A stretch of 23,434 nt of DNA from Thermoplasmatota archaeon (GTDB lineage Archaea; Thermoplasmatota; E2; JACPAO01; JAHFTW01): contig JBFJYU010000012.1 in NCBI GenBank assembly GCA_041622435.1, positions 1 to 23,434 on the forward strand, in the 5' to 3' direction. Under the pieces are notes generated by a model. The model was not told the DNA's origin, did no database searches, and saw nothing but the letters and a program-made list of their open reading frames with translations. Positions within the stretch are counted from its first letter, which is position 1, and each line of letters starts with the position of its first letter. A program made the translations under genes and the position numbers. Below, one piece after another: positions 5,403 to 19,100 of the stretch.

Positions 5403-6209
5403 ATGCCGGACTCTCCTGCCCGTCCGGCCCGGTTGCTTCGCGTCGAGCGCCACGACGGCGGCGTCGCCGTTGCCACGTTCGAGGGCGCCGAGTCCATGAA
5501 CGCGTTCGATCCGGAAACGTTGGGCGCGTTGCGGGTGACGCTCCAGGCACTGCTGGACGACCCCGATGTACGAGCCATCGTTCTAACCGGCTCCGACGGC
5601 GTCTTCTGCGCGGGCGCGGACATCCGGGAGTTCCAGCGCTCCATCCAGGCCGGCACCACGACGGCCTTTGTCCTGGCTGCGACCGAGGAACTGCACGAGC
5701 TCCTGCTGGCCATCTGGCGCAGCGATACCGTGTTCGTCGCTGCTGTCAACGGCGCCGCCGCCGGCGGCGGGCTGGGCCTGGCGCTCGTCGCCGACTACCG
5801 GGTCGCGAGCCCGGGCGCCCGGCTGGCCGCCAGCTACTTCCGACTCGGCCTCTGCCCCGATGGCGGGTCGACGTGGCTGCTGCCGCGGCTCATCGGCACG
5901 CAGCGAGCCAAGCGCTTCTTCTTCGACAACGAGGTCATGGGCGCCGACGAGGCCCTTGCGACGGGGGCCGTTGATGAGGTGACGTCGTCCGAGCACCTCT
6001 TGGAGCGTGCTGTCGCCGTCGCCACCAAATGGGGCGCCTGGTCGGCGGCCAGCCGCGGCTCAACCAAGCGGCTGCTCTCCATGCAGGCCGGTGACTTCGC
6101 GGCCCAACTCGACGCCGAGCGGGGCTTGATCACGTCCTCGGCCGCGTCGGCAGCCTTCGCCGAGGGCGTCGCCGCCTTCCTTGAGAAACGCGAACCCCAC
6201 TTCCCCTGA
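5403..6209 (+). CDS. Enoyl-CoA hydratase/isomerase (crotonase superfamily), 268 aa
   Basis: Crotonase-fold motifs are present: VLTGSDGVFCAGADIREF and the oxyanion-hole region AAVNGAAAGGGLGLALVADYRV. The gene is tightly adjacent to the ALDH gene with a 3-nt gap, implying an operon. Confidence 0.8.
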   Translation: MPDSPARPARLLRVERHDGGVAVATFEGAESMNAFDPETLGALRVTLQALLDDPDVRAIVLTGSDGVFCAGADIREFQRSIQAGTTTAFVLAATEELHELLLAIWRSDTVFVAAVNGAAAGGGLGLALVADYRVASPGARLAASYFRLGLCPDGGSTWLLPRLIGTQRAKRFFFDNEVMGADEALATGAVDEVTSSEHLLERAVAVATKWGAWSAASRGSTKRLLSMQAGDFAAQLDAERGLITSSAASAAFAEGVAAFLEKREPHFP

Positions 6210-6223
6210 CCGCGTCGACAGCG

Positions 6224-6288
6224 GCCACGGCGCCAGCCCGCCACGCCAGCCCGCCACGCCAGCCCGCCACGCCAGCCCGCCACGCCAG
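6224..6288. repeat. Intergenic tandem direct repeat, 13-bp unit CGCCAGCCCGCCA x ~4.4 perfect copies, plus a degenerate leading copy
   Basis: Read directly from the sequence: cgccagcccgcca repeats at 6231, 6244, 6257 and 6270, then cgccag. It lies between the crotonase stop (6209) and the lipoprotein gene start (6341). The unit length is not a multiple of 3. Confidence 0.9.
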
Positions 6289-6340
6289 GTTTCACGGAGA
6301 CCCCACAACCTTGATTGGCGCCCCGGCGTCCCACGTCGGC

Positions 6341-10702: not shown

Positions 10703-11482
10703 CTACTTGGACATGCCCAACGCCTTGAGCAATTCCACGGGCAACGGAATGACGACGGTCGTCCCCTTGTTGTCCGCGGCATTTTGGAGCGTTTGCAGCA
10801 TCCTCAGGAACATCGCGCCCGGCGACTCGGCCATGACGGCGGAGGCCTCGCCGAGCTTCTGCGCCGCCTGGAATTCGCCCTCCGCGGTGATGACGCGGGC
10901 ACGGCGCTCGCGCTCCGCCTCGGCTTGGCGAGCCATGGCGCGGCGCATGTCGGCGGCCAGTTCGACGTCCTTGATCTCGACCATTCCGACCTTGATGCCC
11001 CAGGGGTCGGTGGCGGCGTCGATGACCTCCTGCAATTTTTTGTTGAGTTTCTCGCGCTCGGCCAACAATTCGTCGAGGTCCGCCTGCCCGACGACGCTGC
11101 GCAGGCTCGTTTGGGCGATCTGGCTCGTGGCAATGCCGAAGTGTTCGACTTCAATGATGGCCCGGATGGGGTCGAGGACGCGGAAGTAGACGACCGCGTT
11201 GACGGATACGGGCACGTTGTCGTGGGTGATGATTTCCTGAACCGGCACGTCATGGGTGATGGTTCGCAGGTCCACCTTCACCATCTTGTCGAGCACCGGG
11301 ATGACGAAGAACAGCCCGGGGCCCTTGGCGCCGAGGAGCCGACCCAGGCGGAAAATGACGCCTCGCTCGTACTCCTTCACGATCTTGATCGCGGAAAACA
11401 GGAAGGCGACCACGAGCAGGACGACCACGATGGCCACGAACGCCGCCGTGGGACTGAGCGCCAGGAGCACGGGAGATGCCAT
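10703..11482 (-). CDS. Stomatin/prohibitin-family SPFH (band 7) membrane protein
   Basis: An N-terminal hydrophobic anchor precedes the SPFH core (GVIFRLGRLLGAKGPGLFFVIPVLDKMVKVDLR, VPVQEIITHDNVPVSVNAVVYFRV) and a C-terminal coiled-coil (RQAEAERERRARVITAEGE). The start is either ATG 11482 or ATG 11515, the full tracked ORF. Confidence 0.85.
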   Translation of the reverse strand: MASPVLLALSPTAAFVAIVVVLLVVAFLFSAIKIVKEYERGVIFRLGRLLGAKGPGLFFVIPVLDKMVKVDLRTITHDVPVQEIITHDNVPVSVNAVVYFRVLDPIRAIIEVEHFGIATSQIAQTSLRSVVGQADLDELLAEREKLNKKLQEVIDAATDPWGIKVGMVEIKDVELAADMRRAMARQAEAERERRARVITAEGEFQAAQKLGEASAVMAESPGAMFLRMLQTLQNAADNKGTTVVIPLPVELLKALGMSK

Positions 11483-11605
11483 GCCCTCCAAAACGATCGG
11501 GTGCTGATGAACCATCTGATCTAGCCCAGCCGCCGTTCAGCGGGACGCGACGCTTTTCCCCACGGGCCCCATGCCGTGCTTGTGACCCGGAATTGGCGGC
11601 TCGCC

Positions 11606-11992
11606 ATGGCACTCGTTGCCCTCGCTCTGGCTCCCGGGGCGGCGGCGCACGGAACCCATGTTGAGGACGGCGCCGGGTACGAGGTTTGGTGGGGGCTGCC
11701 CAGCCACGTTTACATCCACCTGGACGGGGCAACGTTTGCGGCGCTGGCGCAGCCCGGAAGCGGTTGGGCGCTGGCGTGGGACCTCGCGGCACCCATCGAG
11801 GAGGCGCTGGTGCGGGAACACGCGGCGCGGCCGGCGGGAGCGTGGTACTGTGACGGCGACCCCGGATATGTTCAGCCGCTGCCCTGCCGCCTGCGGGTCG
11901 CCATCGAACTGCAGGCCCATGTGAACGCTGGCGACGCCGACGTCCATTTCGATCGCTACTTCGGCTATGCCGGCGCCCTGCCGCTTGGCTAG
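11606..11992 (+). CDS. Small secreted protein of unknown function (~128 aa, 2 Cys)
   Basis: The signal peptide MALVALALAPGAAAHG is followed by a hydrophilic acidic mature region. GC3 is high. No recognisable domain. The start is taken as ATG 11606; the tracked ORF begins at an upstream GTG. Confidence 0.45.
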   Translation: MALVALALAPGAAAHGTHVEDGAGYEVWWGLPSHVYIHLDGATFAALAQPGSGWALAWDLAAPIEEALVREHAARPAGAWYCDGDPGYVQPLPCRLRVAIELQAHVNAGDADVHFDRYFGYAGALPLG

Positions 11993-12060: not shown

Positions 12061-12088
12061 TGCGGCCTCTCCGGTTCCGAGGTCCAAC

Positions 12089-12394
12089 ATGAACCCACTA
12101 GCCAAGCTGCTGCTGGTCGTGCTGCTGGCGCCGCCGGCGGCCGCCGATCCCGTCGAGGATGCCGAACAGATCACGTACGACTGTCGCACGATGCTGGCGG
12201 TGTATCCGCCCCGCGACCAATGCGTCGTCGAAGGGCGCGGCGTTGCCTGCGTCACGCAACTCGGCCCCACCTACGCACTGCGCTGCTGGCTCGTCGGCGT
12301 CGATTGCCACGGCAGCCACTGGCACGCGACCGTCGGGCCCACGCACGTGGCCGGCCAGAACACATGCCATCATGCCATCCGAGTCACGCCCTAG
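12089..12394 (+). CDS. Small secreted Cys/His-rich protein (~101 aa, 6 Cys, His cluster CHGSHWH...TCHH)
   Basis: GAGGT at 12079..12083 lies 5 nt before ATG 12089. The signal peptide MNPLAKLLLVVLLAPPAAADP has an AAA-D cleavage-site style shared with the next gene. Six Cys fall in about 75 mature residues. Confidence 0.55.
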   Translation: MNPLAKLLLVVLLAPPAAADPVEDAEQITYDCRTMLAVYPPRDQCVVEGRGVACVTQLGPTYALRCWLVGVDCHGSHWHATVGPTHVAGQNTCHHAIRVTP

Positions 12395-12484: not shown

Positions 12485-12781
12485 ATGAAAACTGTAGCCC
12501 TTCTGATCCTTGCCACCATGCTCGCCGTACCCGGCGCCGCGGCAGACGAGGACCCGTGCGAAACCGGCTTGGACGGCGCCGCCATTGTCGTCTGCCGCGG
12601 ACCCACCGACGAGGGCATCGGATGCGTCGCCCGTGCTGACGGCTGGACCGGGGCCGGCTGCGGCCTCGTCGGCTTCAACTGTTTCTCCGTGATCTGGGGC
12701 ATCCACAACAACGTGATCAGCGTCGGCGGGTACAGCTCATGCCAGGCCGGTGTGTTCGTCAACGTGCCGCCGACCGGGTGA
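12485..12781 (+). CDS. Small secreted Cys-rich protein (98 aa, 6 Cys)
   Basis: GAGGT at 12474..12478 lies 6 nt before ATG 12485. The signal peptide is MKTVALLILATMLAVPGAAADEDP. Six cysteines are spaced through the ~75-aa mature region, with Gly-rich loops. Confidence 0.6.
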   Translation: MKTVALLILATMLAVPGAAADEDPCETGLDGAAIVVCRGPTDEGIGCVARADGWTGAGCGLVGFNCFSVIWGIHNNVISVGGYSSCQAGVFVNVPPTG

Positions 12782-12887
12782 GTTGAACGGTGATGGCGCG
12801 GCAGGCACCCCGCCATCCGCGACTGTTCACCGGATTCGAGGAAAATCGTCCCAGACGCCTCTTATCATGCCCTGCGGCGTCCCCAAT

Positions 12888-15113
12888 ATGGCCGTGAAAA
12901 TCCCGCGCGTATTGCGTGCCCTCGCCCTCGCTGCCCTGCTGGGAGCAACGGGTGTTGCCGCCGCCGGATTCTTCGGCGACGCCTACGGCTCCGTCCCGGG
13001 AACGTGGGAGTTGCCGCCGCTCGAGTATGGTGCCAGCGGCGAGTACGCCGTACAAGGGTTCAACAGGACGCCCGGCGGCGAATTCGTGCCGATTGGTCCG
13101 ACCGCCCGCGGCCTTGAATACCGCAATCCCGCGCCGGAGTGGATTCTGGACGCTTCGGGGCAGCCCCGGCTGGCTTCCGGCGTCGAATCCACCATTTACG
13201 GCTACGTTGATCGAACCGTCGATTTCGATGACGCCGAGCCCACCTGGGCGCCCAAGTGGACAATGCGGGTCCTGGAGGCCGACGGCGACACGGTCGCGAC
13301 GCAAATCAGCATGGCCTTCGCCTCGGCGGACCGCAACGAATCGCTCGTGGAGGCGGCCGGCCAGCCATTGGTCAGCCACATCGCGCGTGGAACCCGGAAC
13401 GTGACCGCAACCACCTACGCCGACGCGTCCCCGCCGGCGTTCAGGACCTGCGGCCTCGTGAACCCGTACCAGGGCTCGCGGGCCCCCCTCGGCCGGACCG
13501 TCGACCTAGGGAACTGCCTCATTGCGGCGACCCACTCGTTGGGCTCCGCCCAAGGCGGAAATGGCACCGTCGCCGGAGCCCTGCTGGTGGTCGCTCGGCC
13601 CTTCGACATCAAGGGCACCCAGGCCATCGATGGCGAACGCGCCCTTGCCCTGGAAACCTCCACAACGATCCATGGAGCTCGCGTCGTGGTGCGGCTGTGG
13701 CTGACCCAGGAATCCCCCGTGCCGGTGCGGATGGTGACGATTGCGGATGACTGGGCCGTCGTGCTAAGCCTTGCGGGCACCCATCAAGCCGCGCCCGACC
13801 GACCCGGGCCCGCGCCAGAGGCGGCTCCAGGCCTCACGTGGGCGCCGCGCCAGCCGTGGGGCCCAGACGACTCCGATGCCGATCATTTCTTCCCGGCGTC
13901 CCAGGCGTGGGCGGCCGCCATGGAGGACGCCCGGGTTGCCGCCTATTTTGATGCCCACCCGAAGGCCGTCGCCGCGAGGATGCATGGGACCGAACACGAA
14001 TTCACGGACCGCCAGCGCGTGACGTGGCAGTTTCGCGTGACCGATGGCATGGAACCGTTCGTTTTCTCGGTGGATGTGGACGAGCGCCCACTGCTGGGGA
14101 TGTACCTGGAAGAACATACCGGCATCCCGGACCCCGCCTGGGATCCCGACGTGGAAGTCACGATCCACGAGCAGGATTATGCCCCGCTGCCGCCCCCCGA
14201 AACGTTACCCGACGTCCTCCCGACCGTAGGCTCGATCGCGAAGCTTCGGGCATCCTACTCGGGCGTCGATGGAGCCTCGCCCGAATGGGAATTCACGGCG
14301 GAGTGCCAGGACTTGCCCTGCGTGCGTAGCGAGTGGCTGGTTGCCGCGAGCCGCAAGGCGGTCAACCAAACCATCGAGCCCCACGCCACCCAGGGCCACG
14401 TCCAGATCGATACGGCATCGAAATCCAGCACGTTCAACGTCCACGGAGACGGCCACCGCAGCCTTTTCGTTTCGGACGGATCGAGCCGGAGCCAGGTCGC
14501 CCCGTCCCCGCTGGCGGCAGGCCGCGCACCAAGCGCCCCGGCCGCGGAAGCGCCCGCCTGGTCGCCCCCCAGCGTGGCGGTGGCCGCCGCGACAGGCCTC
14601 GCCGCCTTGGTCGCGGGGTTGCTTTACTACCTGTGGCCCCAAGTGAAGGCGGTCGGCATTGGCTTGTTCAGCCGGATGGGTCAGCAGGAAATCGTGGACC
14701 ACCCCGTGCGGCGGCACCTGCTTGCCGCCGTGGAGGCTGATCCTGGCATCCACTTCCAAGAGTTGGTTCGCCGGGTGGGTGTTGGTCGCAGCAGCGTCGA
14801 TCACCACCTGCGCCACTTGGAATCCCGTGGGCTCATCGTGCGCCGACTGACCCAAGGCTACGCGTGCTTCGCTCCAAGGGGGACCGATCGCCGAGTGCTC
14901 GCTGGCGCCGGAGCGATTCGGTCCAGCGGCGCCCGCGCCGTGCTCGCCGCCATCGAGGCCGCCCCCGGTGCCTCCATCGCCGACACCGCTCGGGCAACGG
15001 GCCTGGAGCGGTCCACGGCCCACCACCACGTCCAGCGCCTTACCGAGGCGGGACTGGTGGAGCGCCGCCGGGACGGGCGAGCGGTCCGACTGTGGCGGGT
15101 GCGGCCGGCGTAA
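12888..15113 (+). CDS. Membrane-anchored transcription regulator: signal peptide + ~530-aa acidic extracytoplasmic domain + one TM helix + two C-terminal winged-helix (ArsR/MarR-like) DNA-binding domains (~742 aa)
   Basis: ORF 12750..15113 trimmed to the ATG at 12888 (MAVKIPRVLRALALAALLGATGVAAAG). The TM helix is VAVAAATGLAALVAGLLYYLW near the C-terminal quarter. Two HTH units follow: HFQELVRRVGVGRSSVDHHLRHLESRGLIVRR and SIADTARATGLERSTAHHHVQRLTEAGLVERRRDGRAVRLWRV. The ectodomain has no motif I can recognise. Confidence 0.7.
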   Translation: MAVKIPRVLRALALAALLGATGVAAAGFFGDAYGSVPGTWELPPLEYGASGEYAVQGFNRTPGGEFVPIGPTARGLEYRNPAPEWILDASGQPRLASGVESTIYGYVDRTVDFDDAEPTWAPKWTMRVLEADGDTVATQISMAFASADRNESLVEAAGQPLVSHIARGTRNVTATTYADASPPAFRTCGLVNPYQGSRAPLGRTVDLGNCLIAATHSLGSAQGGNGTVAGALLVVARPFDIKGTQAIDGERALALETSTTIHGARVVVRLWLTQESPVPVRMVTIADDWAVVLSLAGTHQAAPDRPGPAPEAAPGLTWAPRQPWGPDDSDADHFFPASQAWAAAMEDARVAAYFDAHPKAVAARMHGTEHEFTDRQRVTWQFRVTDGMEPFVFSVDVDERPLLGMYLEEHTGIPDPAWDPDVEVTIHEQDYAPLPPPETLPDVLPTVGSIAKLRASYSGVDGASPEWEFTAECQDLPCVRSEWLVAASRKAVNQTIEPHATQGHVQIDTASKSSTFNVHGDGHRSLFVSDGSSRSQVAPSPLAAGRAPSAPAAEAPAWSPPSVAVAAATGLAALVAGLLYYLWPQVKAVGIGLFSRMGQQEIVDHPVRRHLLAAVEADPGIHFQELVRRVGVGRSSVDHHLRHLESRGLIVRRLTQGYACFAPRGTDRRVLAGAGAIRSSGARAVLAAIEAAPGASIADTARATGLERSTAHHHVQRLTEAGLVERRRDGRAVRLWRVRPA

Positions 15114-15139: not shown

Positions 15140-15446
15140 CTTCGCGCTAAGCGCTCAGCACGTGTTGCACGGCTCGGAGAACCTTCCACTCACCCTTCGC
15201 ACGGCCCTGCAAGCAGGGCCGCAGTCCCGCCGACTGGGCGTTCTTGCCTTCGCGGTCCGCTTCTCGTGGCTATGCGCCGAGAACCTTTTGGACCGCTCGC
15301 AAGACCTTCCACTCGTCCCTCATACGGCCGTGCAAGCACGGCCCCAGTCGCGACGAGTTCACGCGCTGGGCGCCCAGCGTGACGCCGGTTACGCCGACAT
15401 CACGCGCTGAACAGCACGCAAGACCTTCCACTCGTCGGGCATATAG
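15140..15446. repeat. Degenerate direct-repeat array of ~120-bp period (3 units). Each ~65-75-bp repeat core carries a 7-bp-stem/4-nt-loop hairpin. The third unit is the 3' coding end of the E1-beta gene.
   Basis: accttccactc occurs at 15181, 15304 and 15423. Core A (15176..15240) and core B (15298..15372) are ~80% identical. Their hairpins are ggccCtg-caag-caGggcc (15203..15220) and ggccGtg-caag-caCggcc (15326..15343), differing by a compensatory pair. A perfect 16-bp palindrome cgctgggcgcccagcg sits at 15364..15379. The 20 nt cgcaagaccttccactcgtc are shared exactly between unit B and the E1-beta C-terminal codons (DEWKVLR). Confidence 0.75.
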
Positions 15447-16375
15447 TAGTGCTCCCGCGCGAACAGCGGCGTGTGCACGTCGGGGGCGGTGACCCGCTCC
15501 ACGGGGGCCTCGAGGTGGTAGAACGCGTCCTCGTTGATGCGGGCGACGATCTCGCCGGCAAGGCCGCCGGTGCGTGGTGCTTCCTGGACGATGACACAGC
15601 GGCCGGTTCGCTTGACCGACTCGATGATCGGTTCGGAATCCATCGGGCTGACGGTCTGCAAATCCAGCACGTCGGCCTCGATGCCGTTGTCCGCCAGGGT
15701 GGCCGCGGCCTTGTCGGTGAAATACCGCATCGCGCCCCAGGTCACCAGGGTGAGGTCGTCGCCTTCGCGCACGTGGGCGGTCTTGCGCAGATCCGGCACC
15801 TCGTCGTCCACGGGGACGTCCTCACGATACTTCCGGTACAGGAACTTGGGCTCCATGAAAATCACGGGGTCGTCGCTGCGAATGGACGCCTTGAGCAGCC
15901 CACGGGCGTTGCGAGGCGTGCTCGGCATGACGACCGTCAGGCCCGGCGTGTGGGCCCAGTACATCTCGCGGCTCTCCGAGTGGTGCTCCAGGGCGTGCAC
16001 GCCGGCGCCGTAGGGCATGTGGATCACCATGGGCAGCTTGAAGCCGCCCTGGGTGCGCTTGAGCATGCGCGCCATATGGCTCTCGTAATGGTGGTGAGCC
16101 TGGTAGCTGAAGCCACTGAACTGCATCTCCCCGATGGGGCGCATGCCGGCCATGGCGAGGCCAGTGGCCGCACCCGCGATGCCCATCTCGCTGATCGGCG
16201 TGTCCACGACGCGGTGCTTGCCGTACTTGTCCATGAGCCCGTCGGTGAGACGGAAGATACCGCCGTCCTTGCCCACGTCCTCGCCTAGGATCATGACCTT
16301 CTCGTCGCGCTCCATTTCCTCATCGAACGCCCGGTTCATGGCCTCGATCAGGTTGACGCTGATGGTTTCGCCCAT
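15389..16375 (-). CDS. 2-oxoacid dehydrogenase E1 component beta subunit (TPP-dependent; pyruvate/branched-chain/acetoin-type), ~328 aa
   Basis: The transketolase-like beta-subunit sequence is present (ILGEDVGKDGGIFRLTDGL, DTPISEMGIAGAATGLAMAGMRPI, C-terminal transketolase C domain). ATG 16375 shares one base with the TGA of the alpha gene (TGATG). GGAGGTG lies 6 nt upstream (cacctcc at 16381..16387 on the plus strand). Confidence 0.9.
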   Translation of the reverse strand: MGETISVNLIEAMNRAFDEEMERDEKVMILGEDVGKDGGIFRLTDGLMDKYGKHRVVDTPISEMGIAGAATGLAMAGMRPIGEMQFSGFSYQAHHHYESHMARMLKRTQGGFKLPMVIHMPYGAGVHALEHHSESREMYWAHTPGLTVVMPSTPRNARGLLKASIRSDDPVIFMEPKFLYRKYREDVPVDDEVPDLRKTAHVREGDDLTLVTWGAMRYFTDKAAATLADNGIEADVLDLQTVSPMDSEPIIESVKRTGRCVIVQEAPRTGGLAGEIVARINEDAFYHLEAPVERVTAPDVHTPLFAREHYYMPDEWKVLRAVQRVMSA

Positions 16376-17663: not shown

Positions 17664-19100
17664 CTATGTCTGGGGTTCTTGGCCCGGACCCGGTGGGCGA
17701 ACCCCGGCCCCCGCGTCAGCGGCAGACCCCGAGTCGGCAGGGCGGCTACCCTCGGCACCGGCACCCGCGTCAGCGTCGGCGAAGGATTCCTCCACCACGG
17801 GCCTGACAGTCAGCCGCAGGTCCTCGCGGTGGACGACCTCAACCGCAGCACCCGCAGGAACCGGCGGCCCATCCGCATCCTCCAGGTGCGCCGTCCACAC
17901 CTCGCCGCGCAGGGTCACCCGGCCCTCGGGCTGCAGGTCCTCCAGGACCCGGGCGCGCTCGCCGACGAGCCCAACGCGGGTCGGCAGCTTGCGGGCCTTC
18001 AAGGCCACGGTCACGGCACCAAACGTGATGGCGCCGCTGGTGACGGCCGCCGCCAGCCCGACGATGAAGAACGTCTGCAAGAACGACGCCGGCAACAACG
18101 GCTCATCCAACAGGAAAACGGCGCCGAGGGCCAAGGCAATCACGCCCACGATGGTCAGGACCCCGTGCGTCGGCGTAAACACCTCAGCGACGAAGAAAAT
18201 CCCGGCCACCGCCAGCAACAAGACCCCCGCCGTCGACGTGCTGAACAAACCCAGGCCGATGATGCCCAGCAACAGCATCAGCGCCCCGATGGTCTCGGGA
18301 ACGTAGGTGCCCGGGTTGGCCAGCCCAAAGATCAGCGCGTAAAGGCCGACCAGGAACAAGATGAACGACACCTGCGGGTTGCCAATGATGTCGACAAGCC
18401 CCGCCAGCGCGCCACGCTCGTACGTCACGATGCGCGCGTTCTCGGTGTCCAGCAGCCACGTGCCGTCGGCCACGTTGGCCCGGCTGCCGTGGACGCTGCG
18501 AATGAACGACGCCACGTCGCGGTCCAGGTACTCCACCATGCCGGTGTCGATGGCCTCGTCGGCCTCAAGGTTGAGGTTCTCGGTGATGAACCGCTCGGCC
18601 ACGTCGGGGTCACGGTCGTGCCGCTCGGCGATCGCCCGCATGCGCTCCACGAGGAAATTCTTCACCTTGTCATCGGCCGGCTGGGTCGAGCCGTCGGGCG
18701 ACGACTGGATCGGCTGCGCCGACCCAATGGTCGTTCCCGGAACCATGCCACTCGGGTGGCCCATGAGCAAAATGAACGTGCCCGCCGAGGCCGCAAAGCC
18801 CCCTCGCGGACCGACGAAGGTCAGCACCGGCACCGTACTGCGCGAGATGGCGCGATCGATGTCGAGGGTTGCATCCACCAGCCCACCCGGCGTGTCCAAC
18901 TGGATCACGAGCGGCACGCCGCGGGCCTCCGCCTCGCCGAGGGCATCCTCAATGTGAATCAGCGTTCCACGCGTGACGACGCCGGTCACGTTGACCAGCA
19001 AAACCTCGTGGCTTCCCCCGGATACCGGCGCCATGGGCGCGGCCAGCATGAGCAGCAGCCCCAGCAGGACGAATCGCCGTCGCACGGCACGACAGCCCAC
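17664..19100 (-). CDS. NfeD-family membrane-bound ClpP-class serine protease (long form: periplasmic protease domain + multi-TM region + C-terminal OB-fold domain), 478 aa
   Basis: The signal peptide is followed by a ClpP-like core (VIQLDTPGGLVDATLDIDRAI...GGFAASAGTFILLMG, a Ser/Lys dyad context), then 4-5 hydrophobic helices, then the C-terminal RVGLVGERARVLEDLQPEGRVTLRGEVWTAHLED, typical of the NfeD OB domain. The GTG start at 19100 is as in the ORF track. Confidence 0.85.
   Translation of the reverse strand: MGCRAVRRRFVLLGLLLMLAAPMAPVSGGSHEVLLVNVTGVVTRGTLIHIEDALGEAEARGVPLVIQLDTPGGLVDATLDIDRAISRSTVPVLTFVGPRGGFAASAGTFILLMGHPSGMVPGTTIGSAQPIQSSPDGSTQPADDKVKNFLVERMRAIAERHDRDPDVAERFITENLNLEADEAIDTGMVEYLDRDVASFIRSVHGSRANVADGTWLLDTENARIVTYERGALAGLVDIIGNPQVSFILFLVGLYALIFGLANPGTYVPETIGALMLLLGIIGLGLFSTSTAGVLLLAVAGIFFVAEVFTPTHGVLTIVGVIALALGAVFLLDEPLLPASFLQTFFIVGLAAAVTSGAITFGAVTVALKARKLPTRVGLVGERARVLEDLQPEGRVTLRGEVWTAHLEDADGPPVPAGAAVEVVHREDLRLTVRPVVEESFADADAGAGAEGSRPADSGSAADAGAGVRPPGPGQEPQT

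Follow-up and report, generated by a model that had tools for sequence, protein, structure and literature searches.

Transmembrane transcription regulators (TTRs), defined as any protein with a DNA-binding domain and at least one transmembrane (TM) region, are found widely across both bacteria and archaea and occur in most archaeal genomes (Demey et al. 2023; PMC10269533). The present analysis concerns a gene on the + strand of contig JBFJYU010000012.1 (GenBank assembly GCA_041622435.1), a stretch of 23,434 nucleotides from a Thermoplasmatota archaeon that we refer to as the window. The product of this gene, hereafter called the window protein, contains both a recognized DNA-binding domain and a TM region, the two features by which TTRs are defined. 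It shares with TTRs of the ToxR/TcpP/CadC type the assembly of an extracytoplasmic sensor, one TM helix, and a winged helix-turn-helix (wHTH) module in a single polypeptide without a kinase. ToxR and CadC carry an N-terminal DNA-binding domain of the OmpR/PhoB type and adopt an N-in, type-II topology. In contrast, the DNA-binding module of the window protein is C-terminal, lies behind a signal peptide, belongs to the ArsR/MarR type, and is duplicated in tandem; its membrane tether is much shorter, and its ectodomain is unrelated to those of ToxR and CadC.

ArnR and ArnR1, regulators of the Sulfolobus archaellum, are described as archaeal membrane-bound HTH one-component regulators that act on promoters and form a paralogous pair (PMC6396743). 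As far as that description extends, the family to which the window protein belongs resembles the pair in being archaeal, membrane-bound, of the HTH one-component class, and endowed with paralogs. ArnR has an N-terminal HTH and C-terminal TM segments and contains no large ectodomain. An earlier note on this DNA, made from the sequence alone, implied that the architecture of the window protein is singular; however, at least 116 cluster representatives share it, and the concept of TTRs has already been described (PMC10269533). What sets the family apart among the membrane-bound one-component regulators already known is its reversed, receptor-like orientation, a tandem ArsR/MarR output module, a new ectodomain, the expansion of paralogs within one phylum, and a shared promoter element. 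Our literature search found no paper that describes a family composed of this ectodomain, a TM helix, and tandem wHTH domains. We give an even chance to the view that the window protein is a type-I single-pass TM transcription regulator, that is, a kinase-free one-component system with a ligand-binding ectodomain and a tandem wHTH module that acts on the promoter element of its own gene.

Architecture and topology of the window protein

The + strand reading frame is open from 12750 to 15113, and translation from the ATG at 12888 yields 741 amino acids (aa) followed by a stop codon (complete coding sequence, 12888..15113). The public gene call begins 21 nt earlier, at the ATG at 12867, and gives a 748-aa product designated P0001; the window protein is the same as P0001 minus 7 N-terminal residues, and P0001 numbering therefore equals window numbering + 7. 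The ATG at 12888, which the earlier note had also chosen, is the better start because family genes carry a TATA-like box ~25–31 nt before the start codon and because the ATG at 12867 overlaps such a box (CTTATCA; 12861..12867, + strand), which begins 27 nt upstream of the ATG at 12888. Comparison with the 116 full-length relatives, which have the architecture in common, indicates that the reading frame is neither a chance open frame nor the artefact of a fusion. No tRNA or Rfam feature was found in the window.

Only two segments of the window protein exceed a hydropathy of 1.6 (Kyte-Doolittle scale, 19-residue window): amino acids 8–29 and 560–584. The region between them is acidic (D+E = 67 versus K+R = 37) and contains 4 Cys, whereas the tail that follows the second segment is basic (K+R = 26 versus D+E = 14, a net charge of +12). 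The first segment belongs to a putative signal peptide or signal anchor (amino acids 1–27; 12888..12968, + strand) with a positive n-region, a hydrophobic core, and an AAA/AxA-type end; the family consensus in alignments is M..RR..A(h-region)GxAxA. AlphaFold2 (AF2) models this segment as a helix with low confidence. The GxAxA-type end is compatible with cleavage by signal peptidase. An uncleaved segment would mean two TM helices, and the DNA-binding part would be cytoplasmic either way. The signal region has no Cys, which rules out a lipobox and a lipoprotein, and the window protein has no RR, which rules out a Tat signal; RR followed by hydrophobic residues is present in 38 of 116 relatives.

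A Pro/Ala/Ser-rich stalk (14505..14573, + strand), which is predicted to be disordered on the basis of a predicted local distance difference test (pLDDT) score <50 at P0001 552–569, leads into the TM helix VAVAAATGLAALVAGLLYYLW (amino acids 563–583; 14574..14636, + strand). The helix is identified by hydropathy, with a peak of 1.94 at amino acids 562–580, by AF2 (P0001 570–588), and by the family alignment, in which the segment is kept throughout. A face of small residues on the helix is conserved (G577, A580, and G584 in P0001). The helix is followed by a juxtamembrane segment, WPxLK....GLFSR in the family and PQVKAVGIGLFSRM in the window protein (14637..14678, + strand), in which W590 is conserved in 86% of members, P591 in 83%, K594 in 87%, L600 in 88%, F601 in 83%, and R603 in 98%. 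The tether that connects the TM helix to the first wHTH domain comprises only ~15 residues.

Two wHTH domains complete the protein. Domain 1 (amino acids 598–665; 14679..14882, + strand) is ArsR/HTH_20-like and has the recognition helix HHLRHL and the wing GYACF. Domain 2 (amino acids 666–738; 14883..15101, + strand; best Pfam stretches at amino acids 683–733) is an internal duplicate of domain 1, with 42% identity over 45 aa in BLASTP (E 7e-11). The wHTH region matches Pfam families HTH_24 (1.8e-16), MarR_2 (7.8e-16), HTH_20 (1.4e-13), and HTH_HVO_0163_N (2.8e-13), each in two stretches; Trans_reg_C is not among the 25 best families of the 33 that matched at E <= 1. The NCBIfam model NF033788 (HTH_metalloreg) scored 49.3 bits, under its cut-off of 55, and Pfam HTH_20 and HTH_5 pass at the domain level. 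PADLOC returned no defence-specific match, only the generic wHTH part of Csa3, CasR, and CARF models at amino acids 677–739. Across the family, the recognition helices are of the ArsR type (HHLxKL and YHxxRL), and H646, H647, L651, H721, and R724 (P0001) are near-invariant recognition-helix positions in 116 sequences. ArsR/SmtB and MarR regulators such as Phr of Pyrococcus (2p4w), CzrA, BigR, and FabT are soluble homodimers with extra dimerisation helices, and those of the ArsR/SmtB group have metal sites; the window protein instead has two minimal wHTH units in one chain behind a TM helix. H629, H646, H647, C667, and H721 (P0001; window amino acids 622, 639, 640, 660, and 714) are 96–100% conserved in the wHTH units, and most members have a single cytoplasmic Cys. 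A metal or redox site at these conserved His/Cys residues is conceivable.

Three indicators point to an N-out/C-in (type-I) topology. The number of Cys in the ectodomain is even in all but 2 of 93 members (4 in 62, 6 in 17, 2 in 9, and 8 in 3), which fits with disulfide bonding outside the cell. The mean net charge across the family is -31 for the ectodomain and +9 for the tail, and conserved Lys and Arg follow the TM helix throughout the family. These indicators support the earlier placement of the wHTH domains in the cytoplasm. Likewise, hydropathy, Pfam, and AF2 bear out the order of parts that had been read from the sequence: a signal-like segment, an ectodomain, a single TM helix, and tandem ArsR/MarR-like wHTH domains.

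The output module is broader than the family defined by the LolA-like ectodomain described below, because it also occurs with other N-terminal parts and in TM-less proteins. Of the family members scanned, 64 of 65 match HTH_HVO_0163_N (PF24266; best E 6e-23). The (L)FSR-tandem wHTH module (..EANPGIHF..HHL..) was observed with other, shorter N-terminal or ectodomain parts in membrane-bound proteins of unrelated, GC-poor metagenomic contigs (loci L016, L018, L019, L021, and L025), some of which have a GC content of just 33–48%. The module also occurs in proteins with no detected TM helix, which are complete at ~175–220 aa in the metagenomic loci L017, L020, and L022 and partial in L027. These small archaeal PF24266 proteins have the same module as the window protein but no signal peptide, ectodomain, or, mostly, TM helix; no literature on their function was found. 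At two syntenic loci, a small HTH_HVO_0163_N protein (190–226 aa) is encoded ~1.5 kb upstream of the family gene (L033 2046–2618 and L035 1865–2545, both on the - strand). This neighbor could act as a soluble partner or as a competitor for the same DNA element.

The ectodomain and its family

When 1.84 billion cluster representatives were searched exhaustively with phmmer and the ectodomain alone (amino acids 28–560) as query, 122 were retrieved at E <= 1e-3, of which 22 reached E <= 1e-10; almost all are 680–820 aa in length. A total of 116 are full-length relatives that share the whole architecture and can be aligned through the TM helix and both wHTH domains, and Pfam detected the wHTH domains in 64 of 65 members scanned. 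The relatives have an N-terminal hydrophobic segment, and most have a second one at about three-quarters of their length. Word-index homology searches with the full protein and with a 65-sequence profile recovered the query only, and a search with the C-terminal module recovered a few short fragments. The window protein is a divergent member of the family, with 23–34% identity to other members.

No sequence family accounts for the ectodomain. Pfam and NCBIfam found nothing in the first 590 residues of the window protein, Pfam (with LolA, LolB, MucB_RseB, and related models included) found no match at E <= 1 in 20 family ectodomains, and a PDB sequence search with the ectodomain profile gave no match at E <= 10. 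By these searches, the ectodomain is new at the level of sequence. AF2 with the 116-sequence alignment produced a model with a pLDDT of 85.3 and a predicted template-modeling score (pTM) of 0.70; a second model had a pLDDT of 81.5 and a pTM of 0.79. From the N-terminus onward, the model comprises a helix, a beta-rich domain whose hairpins are long (P0001 46–310), two helix-plus-sheet modules (344–406 and 454–546), the disordered stalk (552–569), the TM helix (570–588), a short helix, a flexible 11-residue linker (594–604; pLDDT <50), and two canonical winged helices.

In the window protein, the beta-rich N-terminal module (amino acids 39–303; 13002..13796, + strand) is predicted to fold as a LolA/LolB/RseB-like open barrel. 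It contains the first Cys pair (amino acids 188 and 210), which is invariant in the 65-sequence alignment and conserved in 100% and 99%, respectively, of the 116 relatives. The most conserved motif of the ectodomain in alignments, APRxPWGPDDxGVxHPFPLSxA, takes the form APRQPWGPDDSDADHFFPAS in the window protein (13842..13901, + strand). It is followed by helix-plus-sheet module 1 (amino acids 337–399; 13896..14084, + strand), for which a PepSY-like fold is predicted, and by helix-plus-sheet module 2 (amino acids 447–539; 14226..14504, + strand), which is delineated by AF2 and the alignment and contains the Cys pair 473/478 and the LPTVAS motif. The second Cys pair (C480 and C485 in P0001) is present in 78–79% of members. 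Other landmarks of the family include GDxGxY near the mature N-terminus, PYPVR, HPxA, LPTVAS, W.F...C....C, and WxxP before the TM helix.

In fold comparisons, the structures matched included putative lipoproteins, TTHA1012 and VioE (scores of 7.7–7.8), LmcA (7.5), many LolA/LolB structures (5.1–7.1), RseB (6.7), MucB (5.4), and LppX (5.4). Foldseek against the PDB returned only meaningless porin matches (TM score ~0.1). The modeled fold of the ectodomain thus suggests an open barrel suited to hydrophobic ligands, with PepSY-like modules after it, a resemblance and not an established homology; it has no detectable sequence similarity to RseB/MucB or to the LolA/LolB/LppX/VioE fold group. RseB acts on an anti-sigma factor as a soluble protein in its own right, whereas the predicted barrel of the window protein is followed by PepSY-like modules and is fused via a TM helix to wHTH domains. 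The earlier description of an uncharacterised ectodomain without motifs therefore holds insofar as Pfam, NCBIfam, and the PDB offer no sequence-level family, but the ectodomain is not featureless in view of its predicted LolA/RseB-like barrel and PepSY-like modules.

Across the family, the TM and juxtamembrane part is 40% identical, compared with 20–22% for the outer modules of the ectodomain, which are beta-rich, and 32% for the middle of the ectodomain. The sensor has diverged at about double the rate of the TM and wHTH parts (20–32% versus 38–42% identity). Such divergence, together with tandem paralogs, would be expected of a family of receptors that diversify while sharing one output. A scan of loci with a 6-sequence alignment as query and one genome per species yielded ten loci, of which eight come from metagenome-assembled genomes (MAGs) with the label Thermoplasmatota archaeon; the other two share a single MAG whose label is uncultured Halobacteriales. 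Adjacent paralogs are frequent, with four copies in L003 and two or three each in L002, L004, L005, L006, and L028. These comparisons identify the gene as an intact member of a previously undescribed archaeal family whose paralogs have expanded in Thermoplasmatota. In L030, the call for P0003 is truncated, and the true ATG at L030:3953 restores the signal sequence.

The neighbors of family genes are housekeeping genes that encode a 4HBT thioesterase, fumarase, aconitase, tRNA-modification enzymes, and arginyl-tRNA synthetase, and no conserved partner gene was found beside family members in ~20 loci. A link to nearby genes of acyl-CoA metabolism (4HBT thioesterase and enoyl-CoA hydratase) was considered and rejected: the neighbor promoters that were checked lack the motif described below, and the synteny may only reflect the relatedness of the MAGs. 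Further acyl-CoA neighbors are presumably acyl-CoA dehydrogenases, as judged from their C-terminal sequence.

A conserved promoter element upstream of family genes

Alignment of the 75 nt upstream of family genes revealed a common layout that consists of an element, 5–7 nt, a TATA-like box, ~25–31 nt, and the ATG. This arrangement suggests a leaderless or near-leaderless transcript. The consensus of the element is nnnTTSGAnGAtCGyCCCa (consensus form, GGATTCGAGGATCGTCCCA), and T4, G7, A8, and C17 are invariant in a 14-site matrix. In the window, the element GGATTCGAGGAAAATCGTCCCA (12832..12853, + strand) corresponds to the family motif TTSGAnGA..CGyCCCA; both halves are intact, and the spacer between them is 3 nt longer than usual. 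The same +3 variant is present in L032. In the form GGTTGAGAAAATGCCCA, it precedes the gene for P0014, one of a small number of relatives whose alignment with the window protein covers the entire ectodomain.

Nearly all of the family promoters that were examined carry the element. The 8-mer TTCGA[ACG]G[AG], which overall occurs once per 2.4 kb, has 9 occurrences within 13 x 130 nt of sequence upstream of family genes, against an expectation of ~0.7; the matches lie 27–83 nt before the assumed ATG, six of them at 49–61 nt. In all five promoters that were held out of the matrix, the best match to the position weight matrix (PWM) lies 53–60 nt before the ATG (empirical p 0.001–0.07 each). Among ten promoters fetched afterwards, strong matches (p <= 0.003) were seen in five, variants at the corresponding position in four (L030 once its start is corrected, L031, L032, and L035), and a weak match in L029. 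These new loci, 148 kb in all, contain just 11 positions that score >= 11.5, and 8 of these 11 fall in family promoters, often as two tandem copies 31–42 nt apart. The element is absent from the neighbor promoters that were inspected (aconitase, thioesterase, and E1-alpha).

A site directly upstream of the B recognition element (BRE) and TATA box is the expected place for an archaeal activator. Autoregulation or cross-regulation is the simplest reading because the product contains a conserved DNA-binding module and the promoters of its own family contain a conserved element. We infer that the window protein or a paralog binds the element, which is a candidate autoregulatory operator.

The element was also observed, with correct TATA spacing, before three non-family genes (L010 ~1335 and ~7732; L033 ~979). 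They comprise a 646-aa open frame, which has a TM anchor at its C-terminus and lacks a Pfam match; a gene for a lipoprotein of the DUF7490 type; and a gene for a protein of 338 aa that likewise matches nothing in Pfam. All three may be members of the same regulon.

Proposed mechanism, rival explanations, and significance

In the mechanism that we propose, the signal sequence would export the protein and place an acidic, disulfide-bonded ectodomain outside the cell. The LolA/RseB-like open barrel, aided by the PepSY-like modules, would bind a ligand that, to judge from the fold, would be hydrophobic or lipid-like. Occupancy by the ligand would be relayed via the TM helix, whose small-xxx-small face suits helix-helix packing, and via the WPxLK..GLFSR juxtamembrane segment, and would alter the arrangement or the oligomeric state of the two ArsR/MarR-type winged helices that lie ~15 residues from the membrane. 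The tandem wHTH module would then bind TTSGAnGAnCGyCCCA upstream of the BRE/TATA at its own gene (12832–12853) and at those of paralogs, leading to autoregulation or cross-regulation. The kinase-free, membrane-bound regulator that the earlier note had envisaged is plausible and gains strength from the conserved promoter element before family genes.

Several observations weigh against this mechanism. The assignment of topology is based on indirect indicators (hydropathy, Cys parity, and charge) rather than on a dedicated predictor. The window protein departs from near-invariant positions of the ectodomain, including D56>A, G337>D, and G495>S (P0001), and may be functionally divergent. The window element fails the ungapped PWM, with a score of 4.8 as found and 25.9 when AAA is removed, and another regulator could bind the element instead. 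Finally, with a tether of only ~15 residues, compared with 30–60 in ToxR and CadC, it is sterically less obvious how the protein could bind chromosomal DNA from the membrane.

A rival explanation retains the protein and its sensing but assigns the output to regulated proteolysis of the kind seen with Notch, SREBP, or RseA: binding or loss of the ligand would allow the ectodomain to be shed, and an intramembrane protease would then cut the type-I TM helix and free the tandem wHTH module to bind the promoter element. A presenilin-like or rhomboid enzyme could do this in archaea, both being classes that accept N-out/C-in helices. The tether is not only very short but flexible (pLDDT <50 at P0001 594–604), the TM helix is rich in Gly/Ala and conserved in sequence, and a disordered stalk precedes it. 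A proteolytic cascade is gated by RseB and MucB, the nearest functional analogues of the fold predicted for the ectodomain. Moreover, soluble tandem wHTH proteins of ~175–220 aa exist, and the module can thus work without a membrane anchor. However, no protease gene is conserved beside family members in ~20 loci (S15 peptidases occur only in L010 and L036), the NfeD protease of the window lies apart from the gene on the other strand and is absent near homologs, and conservation of the TM and juxtamembrane parts is equally explained by signal transmission or dimerisation. On balance, we regard release by proteolysis as unlikely. Another explanation, which we find rather improbable, denies the wHTH pair the role of a sequence-specific transcription factor. 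The product would be a surface or envelope protein, for example one engaged in LolA-like handling of lipids or lipoproteins, whose wHTH domains dock to a partner protein or bind nucleic acid non-specifically, and a separate regulator would occupy the element and control all family genes together. The near-invariance of the five recognition-helix positions across 116 diverged paralogs would be unusual for a family of transcription factors with diversified targets, and the presence of the motif before non-family secreted or unannotated genes in L010 and L033 fits the regulon of another factor. Yet the Pfam matches, well above cut-offs, are specifically to DNA-binding HTH families of the ArsR/MarR/IclR type, and the tail is strongly basic both in the window protein and on average in the family. 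The invariant HHLxxL and YHxxRL are a generic ArsR-type signature; the flanking positions, which are expected to contact bases, do vary. A conserved DNA-binding module whose own promoters contain the element is the simpler account.

A further reading builds on links that the earlier note had suggested between the gene and its surroundings, with hairpin-bearing repeats downstream (15140–15446) as operators, a trio of small secreted proteins as ligands or partners, and NfeD/stomatin as the releasing protease. Apart from proximity within the window, this wiring finds a foothold only in the half-motif ATTCGAGG of the sec3 promoter, and we consider it hardly credible. The sec3 promoter is ruled out as a carrier of the full motif by its PWM score of 1.6. 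The repeats are relics of coding sequence: 15146–15388 (continuing at 15389–15475 inside E1-beta) contains, at a period of ~120 nt, two degenerate tandem copies derived from the 3' end of E1-beta, a minus-strand gene convergent to the regulator gene. Each copy spans the last ~30 E1-beta codons plus the hairpin that follows and still reads ...(G/D)EWKVLRAVQxVxxA-stop; the minus-strand translations of the relics end in ...GEWKVLRAVQHVLSA and ...DEWKVLRAVQKVLGA, and the true C-terminus of E1-beta is ...DEWKVLRAVQRVMSA*. There is no sign of an operator array in this region, and the candidate operator lies upstream of the gene. Homologs of the trio, NfeD, and stomatin are absent near family members in 10 loci and among the annotated neighbors in nine further loci. 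Nor is any other protease conserved there, and regulated proteolysis of the window protein is pure speculation.

The trio (11576–11992, 12086–12394, and 12485–12781, + strand) consists of real open reading frames whose N-termini resemble signal sequences. Six Cys occur in each of the second and third, which are paralogs of one another (BLASTP E 5e-9), and two in the unrelated first. Neither Pfam nor PADLOC matched any of them, and the related loci contain no homolog. The genes for stomatin (Band_7; 10703–11515, - strand) and NfeD (17664–19100, - strand) lie 6 kb apart and are separated by the plus-strand block of three small open frames and the regulator and by the E1 alpha/beta genes. Stomatin and NfeD genes are usually adjacent in one operon. 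Elsewhere in the window, a perfect 13-nt tandem repeat, CGCCAGCCCGCCA (6231–6288; 4.5 copies, 100% matches), occupies the gap between an enoyl-CoA hydratase gene that ends at 6209 and a metallophosphoesterase gene that starts at 6311.

The way in which a transcription factor operates from the membrane has yet to be settled (PMC10269533). Few membrane-bound one-component regulators have been studied, and almost all of these have an N-terminal DNA-binding domain. The present family offers a reversed topology, more than 100 diverged natural variants with tandem paralogs, a confident structural model, and a conserved candidate operator. The candidate operator is the most useful of these, as it makes the question of DNA binding directly testable even for uncultured organisms. 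If the operator is confirmed, the motif could serve to chart the regulon across all Thermoplasmatota genomes and could reveal what such archaea sense at their surface. It is tempting to go one step further and envisage a receptor-transcription factor system specific to the Thermoplasmatota lineage, in which many paralogs with divergent LolA-like/PepSY-like ectodomains sense different hydrophobic or envelope cues, an intramembrane protease releases the conserved tandem wHTH output much as happens with Notch, and a single shared operator, TTSGAnGAnCGyCCCA, serves the genes of the family and a few genes for surface proteins. Notch combines a large ectodomain, one TM helix, and an intracellular module for transcription in a type-I receptor, an arrangement that resembles the one proposed for the window protein. 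The comparison with Notch and SREBP is one of analogy only, with no homology and no protease partner found, and we hold the extended system to be decidedly improbable. If true, such a system would be a prokaryotic counterpart of receptor-to-nucleus signaling and possibly the main device for extracytoplasmic sensing in this phylum.

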